Shown one piece after another: positions 12,241 to 63,994 of a DNA stretch of 64,000 nt; the stretch's first letter is position 1; every line of letters starts with the position of its first letter. The notes beneath the pieces were generated by a model. The model was not told the DNA's origin. It saw nothing but the letters and a program-made list of their open reading frames with translations, and ran no database searches. The stretch spans positions 6,306-70,305 of the forward strand of contig CAYNPK010000003.1 of the NCBI GenBank assembly GCA_964399075.1. Direction: 5' to 3'. The translations under genes were made by a program, and so were the position numbers. Source of the stretch: an uncultured Candidatus Saccharibacteria bacterium. GTDB lineage: Bacteria > Patescibacteriota > Minisyncoccia > Phycocordibacterales > JACOZG01.

Positions 12241-13710
12241 ATGATTAAACTCGATATCCCCTCCCCCGTTTCACGTATAACAGAAACCCTACAAAAGGGT
12301 GGTTTTTCTGCCTATTTGGTTGGCGGTTGCGTTAGAGATCTTATTTTAGGCCGTGAACCAGCAGATTGGGATGTTACGACCAACGCCACACCACCCCAGA
12401 TTATGGGTTTATTCTCTAAAACTTTTTATGAAAACAAGTTTGGTACAGTCACGATTGATAATGAAGATGTAACAGAACCCAATCTCCGTTTCGTGGAAGT
12501 AACCCCTTTCCGACTAGAAACCACCTACTCTGATCGACGTCACCCGGATGAAGTGCTCTGGAGTGATAATCTAGAAGATGATCTCAAGAGACGAGATTTC
12601 ACGATTAACGCTCTGGCTTATGATCCGACTAGTAATAAACTAGAAGATTTCTTCAAGGGTCAGGAGGATCTAAAAAACAAATTAATCAAGGCGGTTGGTA
12701 ATCCTAGTGAAAGATTTGATGAAGATCCCCTAAGGATGATGCGAGCGGTGCGTTTAGCCTCACAAACTGGTTTCATGATTAACAACGAGACGGTTGAGGC
12801 GATTGAAAAACAGGCTGCTTTGATTAAAAAGATATCTATAGAGAGAATTAGAGATGAATTTATTAAAATAATTTTATCACCGGAGCCAATGTTGGGTCTT
12901 ATTTTAAGCCAAAAATTGGGTCTTCTGAAGCATTTTGTTCCAGAATTAGAAGAAGGAATAGGCATAGACCAAAATAGCGACCATAAATATGACGTTTGGG
13001 GACATATTTTACGCGCCTTGCAACATTCAGCGACTAAAAATTATGAACTAGAAGTCAGGCTCTCTGCTCTGTTTCATGATATTGGCAAGCCAAGAACCAG
13101 ACAATGGAGCGACGAAAAGAAAGATTGGACTTTCTACGGCCACGAGGTGGTAGGCGCTAAAATGGTGGACAAAATTCTAAAGAGACTCAAGTTTCCTGGC
13201 AAAACGATTGATAATGTTAATAACTTGGTCCGTAATCATATGTTTTTCAGTGATATTGATAAAATTACCCTTTCGGCAGTTAGACGAATTATTCGCAATG
13301 TTGGCCGAGAACATATTTGGGAATTAATGGAAGTGCGAACTTGTGACCGAATTGGCATGGGCCGACCGAAAGAAAGCCCCTATCGCCTACGCAAATACCA
13401 ATCAATGATCGAAGAAGCCTTACGAGATCCAACTTCAGTAGGAATGCTAAAAATAGATGGAAAACAAGTTATTCATGAAACAGGCTTAAACCCGGGACCC
13501 AAAATAGGCTTTATTTTGCACGCTTTACTGGAAGAAATCCTGGAGAAACCAGATTTAAACACCGAAAAGTATCTTGTGAAACGCGTTAAAGAAATGGCCA
13601 AACTAGAAGATCAAGACTTAAAAAATTTAGGAGAAAAGGGCCGAGAGAAGAAACAAGAGATAGAAGAAACCGAATTAAAAAAGATTCGAGATAAGTTCCA
13701 CGTGAAATAA
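12241..13710 (+). CDS. cca: CCA-adding tRNA nucleotidyltransferase with HD domain
   Basis: 489 aa; N-terminal pol-beta-type nucleotidyltransferase motif GGCVRDLILGREPADWDVTT; C-terminal HD motif (LFHDIGKP, HEVVGAKM). Confidence 0.8.
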   Translation: MIKLDIPSPVSRITETLQKGGFSAYLVGGCVRDLILGREPADWDVTTNATPPQIMGLFSKTFYENKFGTVTIDNEDVTEPNLRFVEVTPFRLETTYSDRRHPDEVLWSDNLEDDLKRRDFTINALAYDPTSNKLEDFFKGQEDLKNKLIKAVGNPSERFDEDPLRMMRAVRLASQTGFMINNETVEAIEKQAALIKKISIERIRDEFIKIILSPEPMLGLILSQKLGLLKHFVPELEEGIGIDQNSDHKYDVWGHILRALQHSATKNYELEVRLSALFHDIGKPRTRQWSDEKKDWTFYGHEVVGAKMVDKILKRLKFPGKTIDNVNNLVRNHMFFSDIDKITLSAVRRIIRNVGREHIWELMEVRTCDRIGMGRPKESPYRLRKYQSMIEEALRDPTSVGMLKIDGKQVIHETGLNPGPKIGFILHALLEEILEKPDLNTEKYLVKRVKEMAKLEDQDLKNLGEKGREKKQEIEETELKKIRDKFHVK

Positions 13711-32481: not shown

Positions 32482-32521
32482 ATTAGGGATTAGGGATTAG
32501 GGATTAGGGATTAGGGATTAG
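32482..32521. repeat. Heptanucleotide microsatellite (ATTAGGG) x5 plus a partial copy
   Basis: cattagggattagggattagggattagggattagggattag read directly from the sequence; located between the acidic ORF and the four-helix-bundle gene. Confidence 0.9.
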
Positions 32522-50133: not shown

Positions 50134-50162
50134 TTGACAAGAGAGGTCAAAAGGTATATACT
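50134..50162 (+). promoter_or_regulatory. Consensus sigma70-type promoter (TTGACA-17-TATACT) reading into the high-GC island
   Basis: gacTTGACAagagaggtcaaaaggtaTATACTg; about 200 nt upstream of the island's first ATG (50362). Confidence 0.5.
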
Positions 50163-50361
50163 GTATGGAGTTACTGAAGTTTGGCCAGGACTTTGACAAT
50201 CGAATAGGATGAAGAGGTAAAAATAGAGAAATCTATTGTTATTCCTCAACGTCTGAATAAGAGATAGCGTAAAAACCTTAACCTTGTTCAGATTTGAGGG
50301 ATCGCAATGTTTGCGGTTCTTGGTTCCCGCCAACCGATGGCGAAGTGGCAAGGAGAGCAAC

Positions 50362-50934
50362 ATGAAAAAGATTGTTCTCGCCGGGCCGCCTCGGTCTGGC
50401 AAGAGCTGTGTGCGCGAAGGGCTGAAGCAGGCCATTCGCGCGATTCCCGGCAACGCGGTGTATCCGTATGTGATCACCGCTTGCCCCGACGGCGAAGGTT
50501 CGTGGTTCCAGGAAACTGTGAACAACGACCCAGAGCTGGCGGCGGCGTGCAAGGCGGCCTACAAGGCCAAGTTCACGCCGGAGTTCGTGAAGCGGGTTGC
50601 GGACTCCGTCCGCAATTGCTCGCTCGAGCTGACTCTCGTGGACATTGGAGGTATCACCTCCGTTGAAAACGAGGAGATCTGCAGTTCGGCGACGCACATT
50701 GTCATTCTCGCGAGCGACATGAGCAATGTCGCCGAGTGGCAGGAGTTTGCTCGGAAGGTCGGGCTCACTGTGGTGGCCGAGATTCACTCGGATTACCACG
50801 GCACGGAAGATGGCGTCGAGGGCGTTGGTCCCGACGGTATCCTTCGCGGGTCGGTTCACCACCTCGAACGAGGTGAAGTAGTGGCCGACCGTCCGATGAT
50901 CAAAGCTCTCGCAGACCATTTGCTGGCGATTTAA
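50362..50934 (+). CDS. P-loop NTPase of unrecognised family (190 aa), first gene of the high-GC island
   Basis: RBS aaggaga 7 nt upstream; Walker A KIVLAGPPRSGKSC, Walker B-like LELTLVDIGG; GC3-rich codon usage. Confidence 0.6.
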   Translation: MKKIVLAGPPRSGKSCVREGLKQAIRAIPGNAVYPYVITACPDGEGSWFQETVNNDPELAAACKAAYKAKFTPEFVKRVADSVRNCSLELTLVDIGGITSVENEEICSSATHIVILASDMSNVAEWQEFARKVGLTVVAEIHSDYHGTEDGVEGVGPDGILRGSVHHLERGEVVADRPMIKALADHLLAI

Positions 50935-51079
50935 TTCGCCAGGGTTGTGAGTCAGCCAAAAACTCTCATGGGAAACTGGAGAAGCCCATCTAATTCTTCT
51001 CCTCTCTGTTGAGTTCTTGAGAAGGTCTTGAGAACTCATTGAGAGGTTTGGGACCACTTGAAAAAGAAAGGAGTGTCCC

Positions 51080-51385
51080 ATGTCCACGTACAACATCAGC
51101 CTGACCGATGGCGTGCTCAAGGTGGGGTTCGGGGCTCCGGCCCAGAACGATCAGATCGTGAAGGATGCGGAGACGCGCCTCGACGAGATGATCTCCACCG
51201 GCGAGCTCGCGGGCGGTGACGTGATCCGGGTCAACGGCCCGGCCTCGCTCCCGGTCGCGATGGTGATCGCCCACAAGGTGGCGCACCTGTACGGCGCGGT
51301 GGCGTGCTTCGACCCCAAGCTGTCGAAGTACGTCGTGGCGATCAGCCACGACCCCGCCTACGTCGTGGGCGACCTGATCGACTAA
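51080..51385 (+). CDS. Hypothetical 101-aa protein, candidate partner of the P-loop NTPase
   Basis: RBS aaaggag 7 nt upstream of the ATG; high-GC codon usage; sequence MSTYNISLTDGVLKVGFGAPAQNDQIV...GGDVIRVNGPASLPVAMVIAHKV; no family recognised. Confidence 0.55.
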   Translation: MSTYNISLTDGVLKVGFGAPAQNDQIVKDAETRLDEMISTGELAGGDVIRVNGPASLPVAMVIAHKVAHLYGAVACFDPKLSKYVVAISHDPAYVVGDLID

Positions 51386-51895
51386 GTCGATCAGAAAAAT
51401 TCAGCAGTTCTTGTTACCGTTCTCTGTGGCAAAAGAATGGTAAGTCGGCAACGGCAGTGTTGCAAACATGGAAGAACAGAGCCTAAAAATTTTGTTCTTC
51501 CCCTTATTCAATTCATCACGTGTTGTGGTGAGTTGATTGGGAAAACGATTGAAAAAAGAAAAAAGAAAGGAGGCCAGCTCGACAAAGAACGTCGGGACGA
51601 TGGATATTGCAAACCTCGTTCCGAAGGGTGACGGGAACGCCGAGCTTGATTCGGCGATTCTGGAGGCCCAAAGGGCTTGCGCCGCTTACCGCGCAACGCA
51701 GGCGCAGGTGCAAGACTGGCGCAATCAGCCGGTCTATCCGTATTAGAAAGGAGGTTAGAGTTTGCTGAAAGATTCTCATCAAAAATCTTTCCCTTTTTAA
51801 GTTCATGAGCGATGTAGTTCGTGGACTTATTGGGATTTCACGCCCACGGGAACGGCTAAGGCCAAATCCCACGGGCAAGAATGGAGGAAAGTATA

Positions 51896-52657
51896 ATGCA
51901 GAATATTGAATGGTCGGATCAGATCGGTTCCCGCGGTCGGGGTGCGTGGCTCCTGTTCGTTAAAGGTGATGAGATCATTCCGTTCAGCGGAATGGATATC
52001 CCTGGCGTGGTTGTGGTCCGAGGAACGGACTACACCAAGAACGGTAAGTGGTCGCACACCACCTACCGGCTTCAGGTCGCGGACAGCGTGCGGCACATCG
52101 CCGGGCGCAACGGCTGGGAAACTGGCCGGTTCGTGGAAGGCCTCGGCTCTGCCGTTGGCTGTGCCACGCCCGACACGTGGGCGGACACAGCCAGTGCGCT
52201 CGGGGTTTCGGTGCCGAGCACGATGGAGTTCCTGCGGGCGTGGCGGCCAGGGGCCGCGGAGAAGTTGGATGAGGTCGAAGAGTCGTTGGCGAAACTGGAG
52301 GAAGTTTCCGAGCAGGAAACTGACTCCGTGATCGTCACCGTCTCGTTCGGCTCGCCGACCAACCGCGCCATCCGCGAGGGATACTGGGAGTGGCCAAAGG
52401 GCATCCCGGGATACGCCGCGGAGATCCGACTGAAGGATTCCGACAAGGGCTGGAGCGAGGGCAACATCACGGTCGTCGGAATCTCCGGCACCGTTCTCTC
52501 GGTCAAGCACTCGGCTGGTATGCACGGCGGTTACTACGCCGTGTCGGTCGCAGTTCTTCCAGGAACGGAGACCGAGATCCCGCCCTTCGAGACCGCCCAG
52601 GAAGTCGCCGAACCGCGGTTCGGCACTTGCTTGGGCGACTTGCTCAAGCGAGGATGA
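51896..52657 (+). CDS. Hypothetical 253-aa protein within the island (the track ORF starts 15 nt earlier)
   Basis: ggagga RBS 7 nt upstream of the second ATG; high-GC codon usage; no family recognised; followed by a strong terminator. Confidence 0.5.
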   Translation: MQNIEWSDQIGSRGRGAWLLFVKGDEIIPFSGMDIPGVVVVRGTDYTKNGKWSHTTYRLQVADSVRHIAGRNGWETGRFVEGLGSAVGCATPDTWADTASALGVSVPSTMEFLRAWRPGAAEKLDEVEESLAKLEEVSEQETDSVIVTVSFGSPTNRAIREGYWEWPKGIPGYAAEIRLKDSDKGWSEGNITVVGISGTVLSVKHSAGMHGGYYAVSVAVLPGTETEIPPFETAQEVAEPRFGTCLGDLLKRG

Positions 52658-52677
52658 AGAAGATGAAGTAGTTCTTT

Positions 52678-52733
52678 AGGAGGAGGGCGAGAGAGAATCG
52701 AAAAACGATCTCTCGTTCTCCTCCTCCTTTTTG
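52678..52733 (+). terminator. Rho-independent terminator
   Basis: Long GC-rich hairpin aggaggagggcgagagagaatcg-aaaaa-cgatctctcgttctcctcctcc followed by ttttt. Confidence 0.65.
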
Positions 52734-52804
52734 AAATCATCAGCGCGTTGCTGGTGGTTTCATTGGGAGAAGTTGTGAGTCAAATCTTTTTTGGAGGAAA
52801 AATC

Positions 52805-53008
52805 ATGAAGAGTTCTTTGACAGTTCTGTGTCTGTTTCTGCTGGTCGTGGGATTGCTCCTGACCACTAGCACCGGATGCGACCTGGTGATCCAGGCCGGT
52901 GGCGGTGGGGGTGGGTACCCGGTCGTGTACGACTATGGGTACTACGAGCCGGCCGTGGTCTACGACTACAGTTGGTACGACTACGGCTACTACGACTACT
53001 GGTGGTGA
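52805..53008 (+). CDS. Small Tyr/Trp/Asp-rich lipoprotein (67 aa)
   Basis: ggagga RBS; signal peptide with lipobox LTTSTGC; mature part GGGGGGYPVVYDYGYYEPAVVYDYSWYDYGYYDYWW. Confidence 0.5.
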   Translation: MKSSLTVLCLFLLVVGLLLTTSTGCDLVIQAGGGGGGYPVVYDYGYYEPAVVYDYSWYDYGYYDYWW

Positions 53009-53052
53009 CGAGGGGACTCGAGGGGACTTTCGTTCCCAGAAAGGAAACTACG

Positions 53053-53223
53053 ATGAAAAAGATTTCTTTTCTGATCGTGATGGTGCTGGTGGCGATCACT
53101 ACTGGTTGCGATTGGGAGTTCCGACCTGGTGGCCGTGTGTACGAGTCGATCCCTGTCATTTACAATGATGGGAACTACAACTGGTACAATTACGGCTATG
53201 GTTGGTACGTCACGGAGTACTGA
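53053..53223 (+). CDS. Small Tyr/Asn/Trp-rich lipoprotein paralog (56 aa)
   Basis: Signal peptide with lipobox AITTGC; mature part rich in N/Y/W (NDGNYNWYNYGYGWYVTEY); preceded by the same hairpin-plus-RBS motif as the next gene. Confidence 0.45.
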   Translation: MKKISFLIVMVLVAITTGCDWEFRPGGRVYESIPVIYNDGNYNWYNYGYGWYVTEY

Positions 53224-53262
53224 CGTGATGAGGGGACTTTCGTCCCCAGAAAGGAGAATGAG

Positions 53263-53802
53263 ATGAAAACGCTCACTTCTTTGGTGATTGTGGCGATGAT
53301 TCTGGGAACGGCTTCGACGGCTTCGGCTGGTGAGAGAAGCCACCGCCATCGGCCGGTCTTCGTTCGCTCGGCACCGGTGGTGCGGGTAGTCCGCCCTCCC
53401 GTGGTGGTGCATCGGCGCCCGGTCTACAGACCGATGCCGGTGTACTACGCCCCTCCGCCGATGGTGCGGGTGGTCCGTCCGGTGCCGGTGGTTTACCACC
53501 ATCGGCCTACCACCTTAGAGGGAGTGGCTGGCATCGTTGGCGTTGCTCTTGGTGGTGCGGCGGACATTGTCGCCGTTAGCCGTCAGAGCTCGCCGACGAT
53601 GATCGCGCCCATGCCCCTGCCGGCACCCCCTCCGCCCTATCAGGTGGAGGCGCCACCTGCTGGGTTCGTTGAGACCGGTCGGCGCTACCACAAACATGGT
53701 GGTGACACTGGCCGTCTCGACTACATCAAGGGATGGCTCAATGGGAGGGAGGTCAAGGTCGAATACAACGACTTTGGCCAGATTGAAGAGATTGATGACT
53801 AG
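53263..53802 (+). CDS. Secreted Pro/Val/Arg-rich repeat protein (179 aa)
   Basis: Signal peptide MKTLTSLVIVAMILGTASTASA; PVVRVVRP-type repeats (RPVFVRSAPVVRVVRPPVVVHRRPVYRPMPVYY...MVRVVRPVPVVY); C-terminal globular part. Confidence 0.5.
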   Translation: MKTLTSLVIVAMILGTASTASAGERSHRHRPVFVRSAPVVRVVRPPVVVHRRPVYRPMPVYYAPPPMVRVVRPVPVVYHHRPTTLEGVAGIVGVALGGAADIVAVSRQSSPTMIAPMPLPAPPPPYQVEAPPAGFVETGRRYHKHGGDTGRLDYIKGWLNGREVKVEYNDFGQIEEIDD

Positions 53803-53826
53803 TGAGCCGGGAGGTCTCGCTGTCAC

Positions 53827-53867
53827 ACACGCGCCTACTGCTTTCGAGCGGTGGGCGTGTTTTTTTG
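53827..53867 (+). terminator. Rho-independent terminator closing the high-GC island
   Basis: Hairpin cacgcgcc-(loop)-ggtgggcgtg followed by ttttttt; low-GC tsaE begins 15 nt later. Confidence 0.6.
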
Positions 53868-53881
53868 CTAAAATAATTTAG

Positions 53882-61950: not shown

Positions 61951-62811
61951 TTATTTTTGACATCGGGGACAGAAGTGAGTCCCTCGGCCGTTTAATTTAG
62001 TTTTAATTATCTTAGTTTCACAACGTTTGCAAGGTTCTCCTTGTCGACCATAAACATATAAGTGGGGGACGAAGCCTCCCGGCTGACCGCCGGAGCGTCG
62101 ATAGTTACGGAAGGAGGTTCCTTTCTTCTTGATTGATAATGTTAGCACTTCAATAATTGCGGTGTACAGATTGCATCTCTCTTTTTTGCTTAAAGTTCCA
62201 GACAAGCGATCTGGTAGAATTTTCGCCAGAAAACAGCTTTCGTCAACGTAGATATTTCCTAATCCAGCGATTAGTGTTTGATCAAGCAATAGAGTTTTAA
62301 TTTTGCGCTTAGAATAACGAGCTAAGATCTGCTCGAAGTGAGCTAGAGTAAAATTTTTACGATCGAGCGGTTCTGGTCCATGCCTATCGAATAATTTTTC
62401 CAAACCTTCTTTGTCCACCAAGCGTATCCAGGCAAATTTGCGCAGGTCATTGAAGCGGAGTTGAGAACCGTCAGCGAAATTAATAATCACTCGGGTATAT
62501 TTAGTCGGATCTTCCGGATGACCGCCGATAATTAATTTTTCTTTTGAGCCGATTTTTGGTTGGTAAATTAATTGCCCGGTCATCTTAAGGTGGATGAGTA
62601 GAAATTTTTCACCAGAGATTTCTAAAATCAAAATTTTGGCCCGACGTTGGATGGCCAAAATCTTTTTGCCAATTATTTGTCTAACAAATTCATCCAGATT
62701 GAGCGTCTGGATAATTTTCGGCCAAGTTATCTCTAGGGTTTTAATTTGGCGACCCACCAGCGCTTTGGCTAGTTCTCGCTTGAGGGTTTCCACCTCCGGT
62801 AATTCAGGCAT
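61951..62811 (-). CDS. mutM: Formamidopyrimidine-DNA glycosylase
   Basis: Start taken at MPELPEVE (catalytic Pro2 and Glu3), with an N-terminal 13-aa ORF extension excluded; C-terminal zinc finger CKRCETKIIKTKLNGRGTHFCPRCQ. Confidence 0.85.
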   Translation of the reverse strand: MPELPEVETLKRELAKALVGRQIKTLEITWPKIIQTLNLDEFVRQIIGKKILAIQRRAKILILEISGEKFLLIHLKMTGQLIYQPKIGSKEKLIIGGHPEDPTKYTRVIINFADGSQLRFNDLRKFAWIRLVDKEGLEKLFDRHGPEPLDRKNFTLAHFEQILARYSKRKIKTLLLDQTLIAGLGNIYVDESCFLAKILPDRLSGTLSKKERCNLYTAIIEVLTLSIKKKGTSFRNYRRSGGQPGGFVPHLYVYGRQGEPCKRCETKIIKTKLNGRGTHFCPRCQK

Positions 62812-63994
62812 GTATTTTATGAAATTCTTCTCTCGCCACCTCTGCGTCATCCCAGGGGATTTTGCTACCCCTTGGCCCCATAATGTAAGGATCAGTGCCC
62901 TTGCCGGTGATGATAACCACGTCCTTGGGTTGGGCGATTGTGAGGGCCTTCCTGATCGCTAGGCGCCTATCCATCTCAATTTCATATTTATCCTTGGGGA
63001 TTACTGCCGCTATTTGCTCCACAATCTGTCGCGGATCCTCATCATAAGGATCTTCGTTAGTCAGGAAGATTCGATCGCAATATTGGGTGGCGACTTTGCC
63101 CATTTCTGGCCTCTTCCACTTGTCTCGTCCGCCACCGGTGCCACCAAGAACAGCGATTAGTTTGTAGTTTCTAGTGGCTAGGGGGTTGGGATTGAATACC
63201 TGATAAACTTGGCGGAGCGAATCCGTCGTGTGGGCGTAGTCCACGATTACTTCAAATGGTTCGGAAATCACTTTCTCCATTCGCCCTCGGACGCTCTGAC
63301 ACTCGCTGATCGCTTGGCGAATTATTTCTTCTTTAATCTTCATCGCTCGGGCCAGAGTAACCGCCGCTAACACATTGTAGGCGTTGAATTCTCCGGGCAG
63401 GACGCGCATCCAGTCCTCGATTTTATTCTTACCGTAAGTTATTTTGTTCACCACTCTCGTGGCGAGGAATTTGTCCGCTTCTTTGCTGTCAGTATTAACG
63501 ACCAGAATTTTGTTAGTCTTAGGCGAGCGTTCTAGAGCTTTAGCAATCTTAAGTTTGGCTTCAACATATCGTTCGTAAGAGCCGTGCGACTCGATATGTT
63601 CTGGGGTTAAGTTAGTGAAGATGAGCGCGTCGAGGGCAATAAATTTATGACGGAATTGTTTCGCGCCCTCGCTGGTCATCTCAATCACCGCGTGGGTACA
63701 CTTGGCCTCAATCGCTTGTCTTAAAATTTTGTGGACGAAGCCTCTCCCTGGCATGGTCATCTTCTTTAGATTAGCTTGGGATTGGTCGCCAACTTTGAAG
63801 CGCAAGGTGGAAGAGATGGCCGTTCGGTGGCCGGCTTTTTCTAAAATAGCGCTAATTAATTCCGCAGTGGTGGTTTTACCCTTGGTGCCGGTAATGCCGA
63901 TCACATAGAGCTGACGAGAAGGAAAGCGATAGCGCCAGACGGCGATTAGCGCCAGCAGAAAGTGATAAATTGGACGCAAGTATTTCATTAGCAT
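62804..63994 (-). CDS. Mur ligase family protein (MurE/MurF-like motif); 5' end possibly beyond the window edge
   Basis: ATP-binding motif GITGTKGKTTT, central and C-terminal Mur ligase domains; no N-terminal domain within the window. Confidence 0.7.
   Translation of the reverse strand: MLMKYLRPIYHFLLALIAVWRYRFPSRQLYVIGITGTKGKTTTAELISAILEKAGHRTAISSTLRFKVGDQSQANLKKMTMPGRGFVHKILRQAIEAKCTHAVIEMTSEGAKQFRHKFIALDALIFTNLTPEHIESHGSYERYVEAKLKIAKALERSPKTNKILVVNTDSKEADKFLATRVVNKITYGKNKIEDWMRVLPGEFNAYNVLAAVTLARAMKIKEEIIRQAISECQSVRGRMEKVISEPFEVIVDYAHTTDSLRQVYQVFNPNPLATRNYKLIAVLGGTGGGRDKWKRPEMGKVATQYCDRIFLTNEDPYDEDPRQIVEQIAAVIPKDKYEIEMDRRLAIRKALTIAQPKDVVIITGKGTDPYIMGPRGSKIPWDDAEVAREEFHKIHA

Follow-up and report, generated by a model that had tools for sequence, protein, structure and literature searches.

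In a 64-kb stretch of DNA from a Patescibacteria-like genome, which we refer to as the window, two neighbouring genes encode a 190-amino acid (aa) P-loop nucleoside triphosphatase (NTPase) and a 101-aa protein of the Csx3 family. Profile matches identify the pair, almost certainly, as a split and order-swapped Csx3-AAA that stands without a CRISPR system in a horizontally acquired, GC-rich island. The pair is a split, CRISPR-less form of a family that has already been described, and hence no novel family. Its two genes are obligately linked across genomes, and we favour, with modest confidence, the explanation that they are the two halves of a Csx3-NTPase unit, in which a Csx3 that binds and cleaves oligoadenylate would be complexed with a dimerising nucleotide switch.

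Identity and linkage of the two genes

An earlier account of the window, made from its letters and hereafter called the sequence-only reading, had proposed a Walker A protein of 190 aa followed 145 nucleotides (nt) downstream by a protein of 101 aa. Both open reading frames (ORFs) are present where it had placed them, on the plus strand and in different reading frames, and the features of the pair are as follows:

50134-50162, plus strand: promoter-like site (TTGACA, 17 nt, TATACT; 11 of 12 positions match), found by consensus scan only
50362-50934, plus strand: gene of the 190-aa P-loop NTPase, with an ATG start; the 'AAA' half of Csx3-AAA by profile
50935-51079, plus strand: spacer between the two genes, 145 nt, 46% GC, with the Shine-Dalgarno sequence GAAAGGAG at its end
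51080-51385, plus strand: gene of the 101-aa Csx3/Crn3-family protein (101 aa plus stop), with Pfam and PADLOC matches

Each of the two genes has its own Shine-Dalgarno site, AAGGAG at 50350-50355 ahead of the NTPase ATG and GAAAGGAG ahead of the 101-aa ORF. A TTG at 50284 is an alternative NTPase start that would yield 216 aa; because the homologues measure 188-192 aa and begin with MK(K)IVL, we take the ATG at 50362 to be the right one. The promoter-like site lies about 200 nt 5' of the NTPase start codon and likely drives the pair and possibly the whole island described below. The motifs reported for the NTPase are also there: the Walker A sequence GPPRSGKS occupies residues 8-15 and LELTLVDIGG residues 88-97, the latter containing a Walker B or switch II element of the DxxG type (LVDIGG, residues 92-97), and no [NT]KxD motif occurs anywhere in the sequence, as had been noted. 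PDGEG (residues 42-46), A110, S143, D150 and R170 are invariant in the family (alignment A3).

The sequence-only reading was right that the NTPase carries no signature of the common kinase or ParA/MinD families, as neither Pfam nor NCBIfam gives a significant match for it; it erred in calling the NTPase novel and the 101-aa protein one of unknown fold, since both match known families. The NTPase matches the PADLOC Csx3-AAA profile PDLC01045 (expectation value (E) 4e-58, profile positions 109-284 of 286), an NTPase-only, cas-associated PADLOC profile of 183 positions (PDLC01515, E 1.6e-57) and the AAA-Csx3 profile C3a67 (PDLC01059, E 2.6e-35). The 101-aa protein matches the remaining part of PDLC01045 (E 7e-31, positions 1-99 of 286), and the two window genes thus jointly span one Csx3-AAA profile; it further matches the PADLOC profile Csx3(CARF) over its full length (PDLC01040, E 3e-18) and passes the threshold of Pfam Cas_csx3 (PF09620; 26.8 bits, gathering score 21). 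Csx3-AAA (cluster 35, mainly in cyanobacteria) and AAA-Csx3 (cluster 67) were described as accessories of type III CRISPR systems by Shah et al. 2019 (PMC6546367), and later papers and reviews name the Csx3-AAA ATPase 'AAA+' and give its function as unknown.

At E<=1e-3 and with 90% clustering, we found 963 homologues of the NTPase and 896 of the 101-aa protein, the best of which are 88% and 87% identical to the window proteins, respectively; chance could not produce such numbers of matches. The 120 best relatives of each are mostly separate proteins of ~190 and ~101 aa, and come mostly from Patescibacteria assemblies. Among 19 species-level loci, taken from contigs of one genome per species, Csx3 adjoins the NTPase in 17, and the remaining two stop at a contig edge. 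The NTPase precedes Csx3 in 13 of these loci and follows it in three, a single locus has a gene between the two, and on long contigs of three unrelated genomes the NTPase-Csx3 order is kept while the flanking genes differ.

Fusions link the two families as well. An exhaustive HMMER search with the NTPase returned 597 representatives, and among the best 150 of these, 39 are fused to Csx3, 25 in the order Csx3-NTPase (several with tandem Csx3-Csx3) and 14 in the order NTPase-Csx3. Divergent Csx3 domains are carried by five of ten other 'NTPase-X' proteins that we examined, and other partners include HD, HD_4 and Fic. In the nearest representative, P0241, the NTPase domain is 66% identical to that of the window, the fusion is collinear with the window genes and the C-terminal Csx3 belongs to the same subfamily. 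The AlphaFold2 (AF2) model of a second natural fusion, P0397 (predicted local distance difference test (pLDDT) score 91, predicted template modelling (pTM) score 0.83), is disordered only at residues 205-208 and suggests, as judged by pTM and not by predicted aligned error or coordinates, a fixed domain packing with a defined NTPase-Csx3 interface. Adjacency and fusion in these numbers show that the NTPase and Csx3 genes are obligately linked, and the two-gene module put forward by the sequence-only reading holds up.

Fold of the NTPase and residues of Csx3

The AF2 model of the window NTPase (pLDDT 95.4, pTM 0.90) was compared with the PDB by Foldseek, and its top matches are all SIMIBI-class NTPases (probability 1.0, template modelling (TM) score 0.45-0.62). 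They comprise the GPN-loop GTPases Npa3 (5HCI) and SaGPN (E 4e-5 to 5e-4), MinD (1ION, TM 0.61), FleN (0.62), ParF (0.60), ParA-like proteins and Soj, as well as NifH, FtsY, Get3 and the synthetase domain of CTP synthase. P-loop kinases reach TM scores of only 0.28-0.43, the top 50 PDB matches hold neither an AAA+ protein nor a classical Ras-family small GTPase, and the fusion model gives the same SIMIBI-type picture. No sequence-level match of the NTPase to any solved structure was found. In its predicted fold, the NTPase resembles SIMIBI proteins and neither AAA+ nor Ras/MglA ones. We rejected an assignment to the AAA+ class: the 190-aa domain has no lid, its Walker B sequence LVDIGG lacks a Glu and no AAA+ structure stands among those 50 matches. 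Among the Pfam AAA families the best match, PrkA AAA, falls far under the cut-off (E 0.25, 10.8 bits).

The same results bear on the parallel that had been drawn to MglA/MglB or CvnD/CvnB, in which the NTPase would be a small GTPase and its partner a Roadblock-like GTPase-activating protein or guanine nucleotide exchange factor, together controlling a surface structure of the neighbouring lipoproteins. A P-loop NTPase with a DxxG switch II, GPN-loop GTPases as the top structural match, a small obligate partner and lipoprotein genes downstream would all suit such a system, and CvnD conservon proteins presumably belong to the same Pfam family as the GPN-loop GTPases. However, no Pfam match to Ras, ATP_bind_1 or Robl_LC7 occurs at E<=1, the NTPase has no NKxD motif, its model finds SIMIBI-class proteins and not MglA as best matches, and the partner is a Csx3. 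The lipoprotein, secreted-protein and 258-aa genes that follow the pair in the window accompany it in none of 18 related loci, which removes the link to a surface structure. We therefore discarded homology to MglA/MglB or CvnD/CvnB, and consider an account of this kind to be extremely improbable.

For Csx3, structural and kinetic work on the Archaeoglobus fulgidus protein (AfCsx3) gives H57, H60, D69, R71 and H80 as key residues and describes cyclic tetra-adenylate (cA4) as sandwiched between two AfCsx3 dimers, with a composite active site and cooperative kinetics (PMC7371418). In the subfamily of the window Csx3, all 119 stand-alone relatives share an unvarying set of residues, G53, H65, H69, D78, K80 and H90. 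Of 183 fused Csx3 domains, by contrast, only 76-86% keep the three His residues, which are lost, for example, in P0248, P0254 and P0259. Judged by this conservation, split-type Csx3 looks like a working catalytic or metal-binding protein, and some of the fused domains may be pure sensors. A subfamily-specific loop, GxPAQNDQIV at residues 18-27 of the window Csx3, is nearly invariant.

Genomic setting of the pair

The pair lies at the 5' end of the island, whose real existence, proposed by the sequence-only reading, is evident from base composition. Beyond the two genes listed above and a 48-aa ORF, the island and its further features are:

50284-53870: GC-rich island of seven same-strand genes, ~3.6 kb, GC 0.57 against 0.42 in the rest of the window
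51881-52657, plus strand: gene of a 258-aa island protein with no match in Pfam, NCBIfam or PADLOC
52805-53008 and 53053-53223: genes of two tiny lipoproteins (lipobox TGC), rich in Tyr, Gly, Trp and Asp, with YDYGYY-type repeats
53263-53802: gene of a 179-aa secreted protein rich in Pro, Val and Arg
53829-53860, plus strand: terminator-like hairpin from a consensus scan, 14 pairs, 8 of them G-C, followed by a T run

The hairpin lies where the island ends on its 3' side, immediately ahead of the host gene tsaE. GC content at third codon positions (GC3) is 0.66-0.95 in the island genes and 0.403 +/- 0.06 in host genes (n=42), with z of 4.3-9.2, and the island is compositionally foreign. Only the NTPase and Csx3 form its conserved module. 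The island as a whole was rejected as one conserved unit because its other genes are absent from the 18 related loci and relatives of the 258-aa protein occur without the pair: these share 54-83% identity and lie on 17 metagenome contigs (L032-L048; contig GC 0.37-0.68), with no NTPase-Csx3 pair nearby on any of the 17. The 258-aa gene is independently conserved and may in truth begin with the ATG at 51896, which closely follows GGAGGA. The two lipoproteins and the 179-aa protein have no family matches. A 69-nt repeat in two copies that are 74% identical (53020-53088 and 53230-53298) lies 5' of the second lipoprotein gene and of the 179-aa gene, and contains a hairpin, GAGGGGACTTTCGTYCCC, together with a ribosome-binding site.

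The excess of GC recurs with the pair. At every one of the 18 related loci the flanks have a lower GC content than the pair, and the neighbouring genes a lower mean GC3; Csx3 taken singly exceeds the neighbouring-gene mean in all 18 (by 0.27 on average) and also exceeds the NTPase in GC3 in all 18 as well as in the window (0.95 vs 0.73). Spacers within the window island are host-like, with 0.42-0.46 GC. A GC-rich donor alone fails to account for this gene-specific pattern at synonymous sites. When the window is compared with the same genomes, the NTPase is 69-80% identical, whereas PolA, RuvB, TsaE and PilB are 37-56% identical; an NTPase far more alike than the housekeeping proteins, taken with the excess in GC3, therefore points to horizontal spread among Patescibacteria, to extreme constraint, or to both. 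We consider a chimeric assembly unlikely, given that independent assemblies repeat the pattern and that the island spacers are host-like. Elsewhere in the window, the highest host-side GC3 belongs to two minus-strand ORFs, 1346-2698 (0.62) and 62804-63994 (0.55; mean 0.40), which may be further foreign genes, and at 32482-32521 the heptamer ATTAGGG is repeated perfectly in tandem, 5.7 times.

A horizontally mobile module with strictly conserved catalytic-type residues and no cognate CRISPR system could serve counter-defence, as a mobile unit that degrades cyclic oligoadenylate and shields its carrier, whether an episymbiotic Patescibacterium or a mobile element inside one, from effectors that cyclic oligoadenylate activates, in the manner of the viral AcrIII-1 ring nucleases; ring nucleases are indeed known from viruses and plasmids. 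The searches for such an origin argue in the other direction. We found no relatives in 50,697 phage records or in IMG/VR contigs, plasmid matches were cyanobacterial only and a viral fold library returned a single weak P-loop match, on which grounds a phage, plasmid or viral origin was rejected; mobile-element borders were rejected too, with no direct or attachment (att) repeats, no integrase and no transposase flanking the island. Counter-defence also leaves the obligate attachment of an NTPase unexplained, and we regard it as distinctly unlikely.

The spacer between the two genes carries a conserved motif in five related Patescibacteria loci, consisting of a stop-codon hairpin and then GTGAGTRGGGATCC ... 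ATAAG ... GGGCGAGACYRCAGA, with compensatory changes at 7 of 16 predicted pairs. Covariance model R1 added a sixth copy, which precedes the NTPase gene of L029 (E ~5e-6), and the copies are located at:

L003, 10561-10660: spacer-motif copy
L012, 4363-4462: spacer-motif copy
L013, 10554-10665: spacer-motif copy
L019, 7400-7518: spacer-motif copy
L020, 10585-10683: spacer-motif copy
L029, 7061-7176: spacer-motif copy

On these six sequences, the motif is a candidate for a new cis-regulatory RNA. Rfam gave no match for the motif and none for the window spacer, and a structured RNA in the window spacer was rejected because model R1 found no match in the window at E<=1.

The window itself contains no CRISPR array, and the RNA genes found in it are tRNAs only. 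Among the matches listed from its Pfam and PADLOC scans (the first 25 of ~66 matched families), there is no cas gene and no cyclase; the PADLOC matches are housekeeping look-alikes, and the Pfam content is that of an ordinary small genome, with DnaA, RuvB, RuvC, PolA and a PilB-type T2SSE ATPase. Within ~5 kb of the pair at the 18 related loci, 134 ORFs likewise include no Cas protein and no cyclase. Of 354 high-quality genomes from such lineages, only 1.4% carry CRISPR-Cas, and our literature search found no paper that mentions Csx3 together with Patescibacteria. The abundance of the pair in CRISPR-poor Patescibacteria therefore calls for an unrecognised source of oligoadenylate or for a role of the module that is independent of CRISPR. 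An intergenic stretch of a Harrisonbacteria contig (L006, 17358-17685) that a k-mer screen had flagged as CRISPR-like was dismissed as a tandem repeat without spacers; its 80-nt unit is present in 4.1 copies that are 98% identical.

Several families recur next to the pair in the related loci, and the window has no homologue of any of them. A TrmB-type winged-helix regulator of ~250 aa has 10 members near the pair in the 18 loci, a protein of 600-870 aa with a C-terminal GNAT domain recurs in seven, a ~200-aa protein in four, genes of a bpMoxR/vWA 'ternary conflict system' follow the pair in three, and an HD_4 hydrolase homologous to the HD_4 domain of P0305 lies near it in two Patescibacteria loci. 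The TrmB-type and GNAT neighbours stand upstream of the pair in L006, L013, L016, L019, L020, L025 and others. A CARF or SAVED sensor in the TrmB-like neighbour was considered and rejected, as only its winged-helix part matches Csa3/CasR models and its PDB matches are MarR and TrmB. Plasmids of Nostoc and Synechocystis also encode an HD or HD_4 phosphohydrolase beside Csx3-AAA, and P0305 (HD_4-NTPase) and P0242 (NTPase-HD) are fusions of such an enzyme with the NTPase; the window has two unrelated HD-domain ORFs outside the island. The HD/HD_4 partner genes are:

L030, 6208-6786: HD/HD_4 partner gene
L031, 4377-4958: HD/HD_4 partner gene
L006, 11890-12483: HD/HD_4 partner gene
L020, ~13160-13690: HD/HD_4 partner gene

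Three accounts draw on these neighbourhoods. In the first, the split pair of Patescibacteria would be a self-contained, horizontally spreading nucleotide-signal module without Cas10. Such a module could serve to detect or remove signals of the oligoadenylate type that stem from another cyclase, from a phage or from the host bacterium of the episymbionts, and the TrmB-type regulator, the large GNAT protein, the HD_4 hydrolase and the MoxR-vWA systems would give it regulation and output. We rate this as somewhat unlikely.

In the second, Csx3 would act on RNA, as a Mn2+-dependent 3' poly(A)/RNA exoribonuclease gated by the NTPase, and would serve as a minimal, NTP-dependent effector of conflict (abortive infection) or as an RNA-turnover factor with no cyclic nucleotide involved. 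AfCsx3 was reportedly first described as a deadenylating exoribonuclease (Yan et al. 2015), Kaur et al. 2020 (PMC7159879) count Csx3 among the RNase effector domains of NTP-dependent conflict systems, and an activity that needs no cyclase would fit CRISPR-free hosts. The bpMoxR/vWA genes next to the pair speak for this account; their adjacency is limited, however, to three of 18 loci and does not extend to the window. AfCsx3 was later reclassified as a ring nuclease specific for cA4, and the closest cyanobacterial relatives lie in type III loci beside CARF effectors. An RNA-directed role seems to us unlikely.

The third account is nucleotide salvage, in which Csx3 would open or trim oligoadenylates while a kinase-like NTPase and, where present, the HD_4 phosphohydrolase would process the products for the adenylate pools of organisms unable to make nucleotides. 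The recurrence of an HD_4-type phosphohydrolase, fused or adjacent and also beside cyanobacterial Csx3-AAA genes, is in keeping with it, as is the lack of nucleotide biosynthesis in bacteria of the candidate phyla radiation. It sits poorly with the low scores of P-loop kinases relative to SIMIBI proteins in the fold search, with a window that holds no homologue of the HD_4 partner and with a cyanobacterial context that is clearly defence-related, and we give it little credence.

A proposed Csx3-NTPase unit and its known relatives

The general idea of an NTPase switch with a small regulatory or ligand-binding partner is plausible, and the Csx3-NTPase unit that we favour is one form of it. In this unit, the NTPase and Csx3 would form a complex in which a Csx3 dimer binds an oligoadenylate, cyclic or linear and most likely cA4, with metal-dependent cleavage at a composite site made by two dimers stacked head to tail, as in Archaeoglobus Csx3. 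SIMIBI NTPases work as nucleotide-dependent dimers, and the window NTPase, like other members of the class, would dimerise on binding ATP or GTP. With an NTPase bound to every Csx3 protomer, it could then either drive the stacking of Csx3 dimers, by assembling or timing it, or sense it, or report it to a downstream partner, so that either the nucleotide state or a downstream output would be linked to the turnover of oligoadenylate. Tandem Csx3-Csx3-NTPase fusions would fit a ratio of one NTPase to each Csx3 dimer. In this genome, the unit would be an orphan, horizontally acquired and with its own promoter, that acts with a signal source elsewhere in the genome or on foreign signals or RNA 3' ends. 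We advance the mechanism of NTPase-coupled stacking tentatively, with less confidence than the unit itself.

A number of points weigh against this explanation. The role given to the NTPase is purely one that we infer, and we know of no member of the Csx3-AAA NTPase family that has been characterised biochemically. Deletion of slr7080 in Synechocystis reportedly left plasmid interference unaffected (Shah et al. 2019). Sources of cyclic oligoadenylate were found neither in the window nor in any related locus, and the host lineages are largely CRISPR-free. By profile scores, the 101-aa protein falls within the Pfam Csx3 family and outside the narrow Crn3 equivalog, its 22.9 bits for NCBIfam TIGR02579 being under the cut-off of 55.4. 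A fair profile match to AfCsx3 is marginal, at E 0.15, or E ~0.02 with the independent A3 profile; a match at E 1e-24 with profile A1 was discarded as circular, since A1 included the AfCsx3 sequence.

The residues of Csx3 add to these points. AfCsx3 S44, R46 and R71 are replaced by N52, P54 and K80 in the window protein, N52 and P54 being nearly invariant in its subfamily, and of the cA4-contact residues S44, G45, R46 and I49 only G45 is retained (as G53), together with a conservative change of I49 to L57. The subfamily also has the PAQND loop as an extra conserved element relative to AfCsx3, and the ligand of the window Csx3 may differ from cA4. MAFFT and HMMER place Ala68 opposite AfCsx3 H60 and H69 opposite H61; the spacing from H69 to D78 equals that from H60 to D69, which argues for H69 as the equivalent of H60 in an ambiguous register. 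The notion of a 'natural H60A' and thus of a non-catalytic sensor, which came from the alignment with 6YUD, was dropped because H65, H69 and H90 are 100% invariant and the His-Asp spacing is equal.

A SIMIBI-type dimerising switch, as opposed to an AAA+ unfoldase, suggests nucleotide-driven assembly or sensing of the Csx3 dimer-of-dimers site, and with the partners encoded by separate, co-inherited genes the complex should be easy to reconstitute and its partners can be mutated one at a time. In Patescibacteria, which are essentially without CRISPR-Cas, the split pair is found in abundance, is unusually well conserved and moves horizontally; if signalling without Cas10 were true, Csx3-NTPase would be a CRISPR-independent system in its own right and the 'AAA+' reading would be overturned. 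If none of this holds, we are simply left with two orphan cas accessory genes in a small genomic island.

Among known systems, AfCsx3 (AF_1864; PDB 3WZI, 6YUD) belongs to the same Pfam family as the window Csx3 and is only ~24% identical to it. The C-terminal half of AfCsx3 aligns with the window protein through AHK..H, DP[RK]L, SH and GD[LV]ID, and equivalents of its G45, H57, D69 and H80 are conserved there; the two differ in that AfCsx3 has H-x2-H where the window protein has H-x3-H, and in that AfCsx3 is without the NTPase that is the obligate partner of the window Csx3. SIMIBI NTPases share with the window NTPase a classical Walker A sequence, GxxxxGK[ST], and a Walker B Asp followed by xxG with no catalytic Glu, at a sequence identity of only 9-17%. 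The window protein differs from them in having no GPN motif, no deviant Walker A lysine and no NKxD, and, unlike them, possesses a unique invariant PDGEG, S143, D150 and R170 as well as a C-terminal beta-hairpin extension.

The closest described systems are the cyanobacterial ones. The C-terminal half of Csx3-AAA from plasmid pNsp_a of Nostoc sp. ATCC 53789 (WP_114082154) shares 51% identity with the window NTPase, that of slr7080 (WP_011153748) from plasmid pSYSA of Synechocystis sp. PCC 6803 shares 38%, and the window Csx3 is 38% and 39% identical to the fused Csx3 domains of the same two proteins, respectively. A stand-alone Csx3 directly upstream of the Nostoc fusion gene is closer still, at 63%, and in Gloeotrichia a 66%-identical Csx3 lies directly upstream of Cas10/Cmr2. 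Csx3-AAA and the window pair have in common the motifs NGPxS, H-x3-H and FDPK in Csx3 and GPPxSGKS, PDGEG and VDIGG in the NTPase. The Nostoc and Synechocystis genes are located at the edge of type III cassettes, and the type III CRISPR-Cas genes, TIGR03985 protein and HD partner of the cyanobacterial loci do not adjoin the pair in the window, whose host is a Patescibacteria-like genome and not a cyanobacterium. Csx3-AAA is a single polypeptide that reads Csx3 and then NTPase, whereas the window has two genes, NTPase then Csx3, with the 145-nt spacer between them. In AAA-Csx3 (C3a67; for example Chloroflexus Caur_2269 and the fusions P0241 and P0397, ~300-320 aa), some of the fused Csx3 domains have lost the His residues, which never vary in the split type, and a linker of ~10-25 residues joins into one polypeptide what the window encodes as separate genes; the order of the domains in these fusions is the order of the genes in the window.

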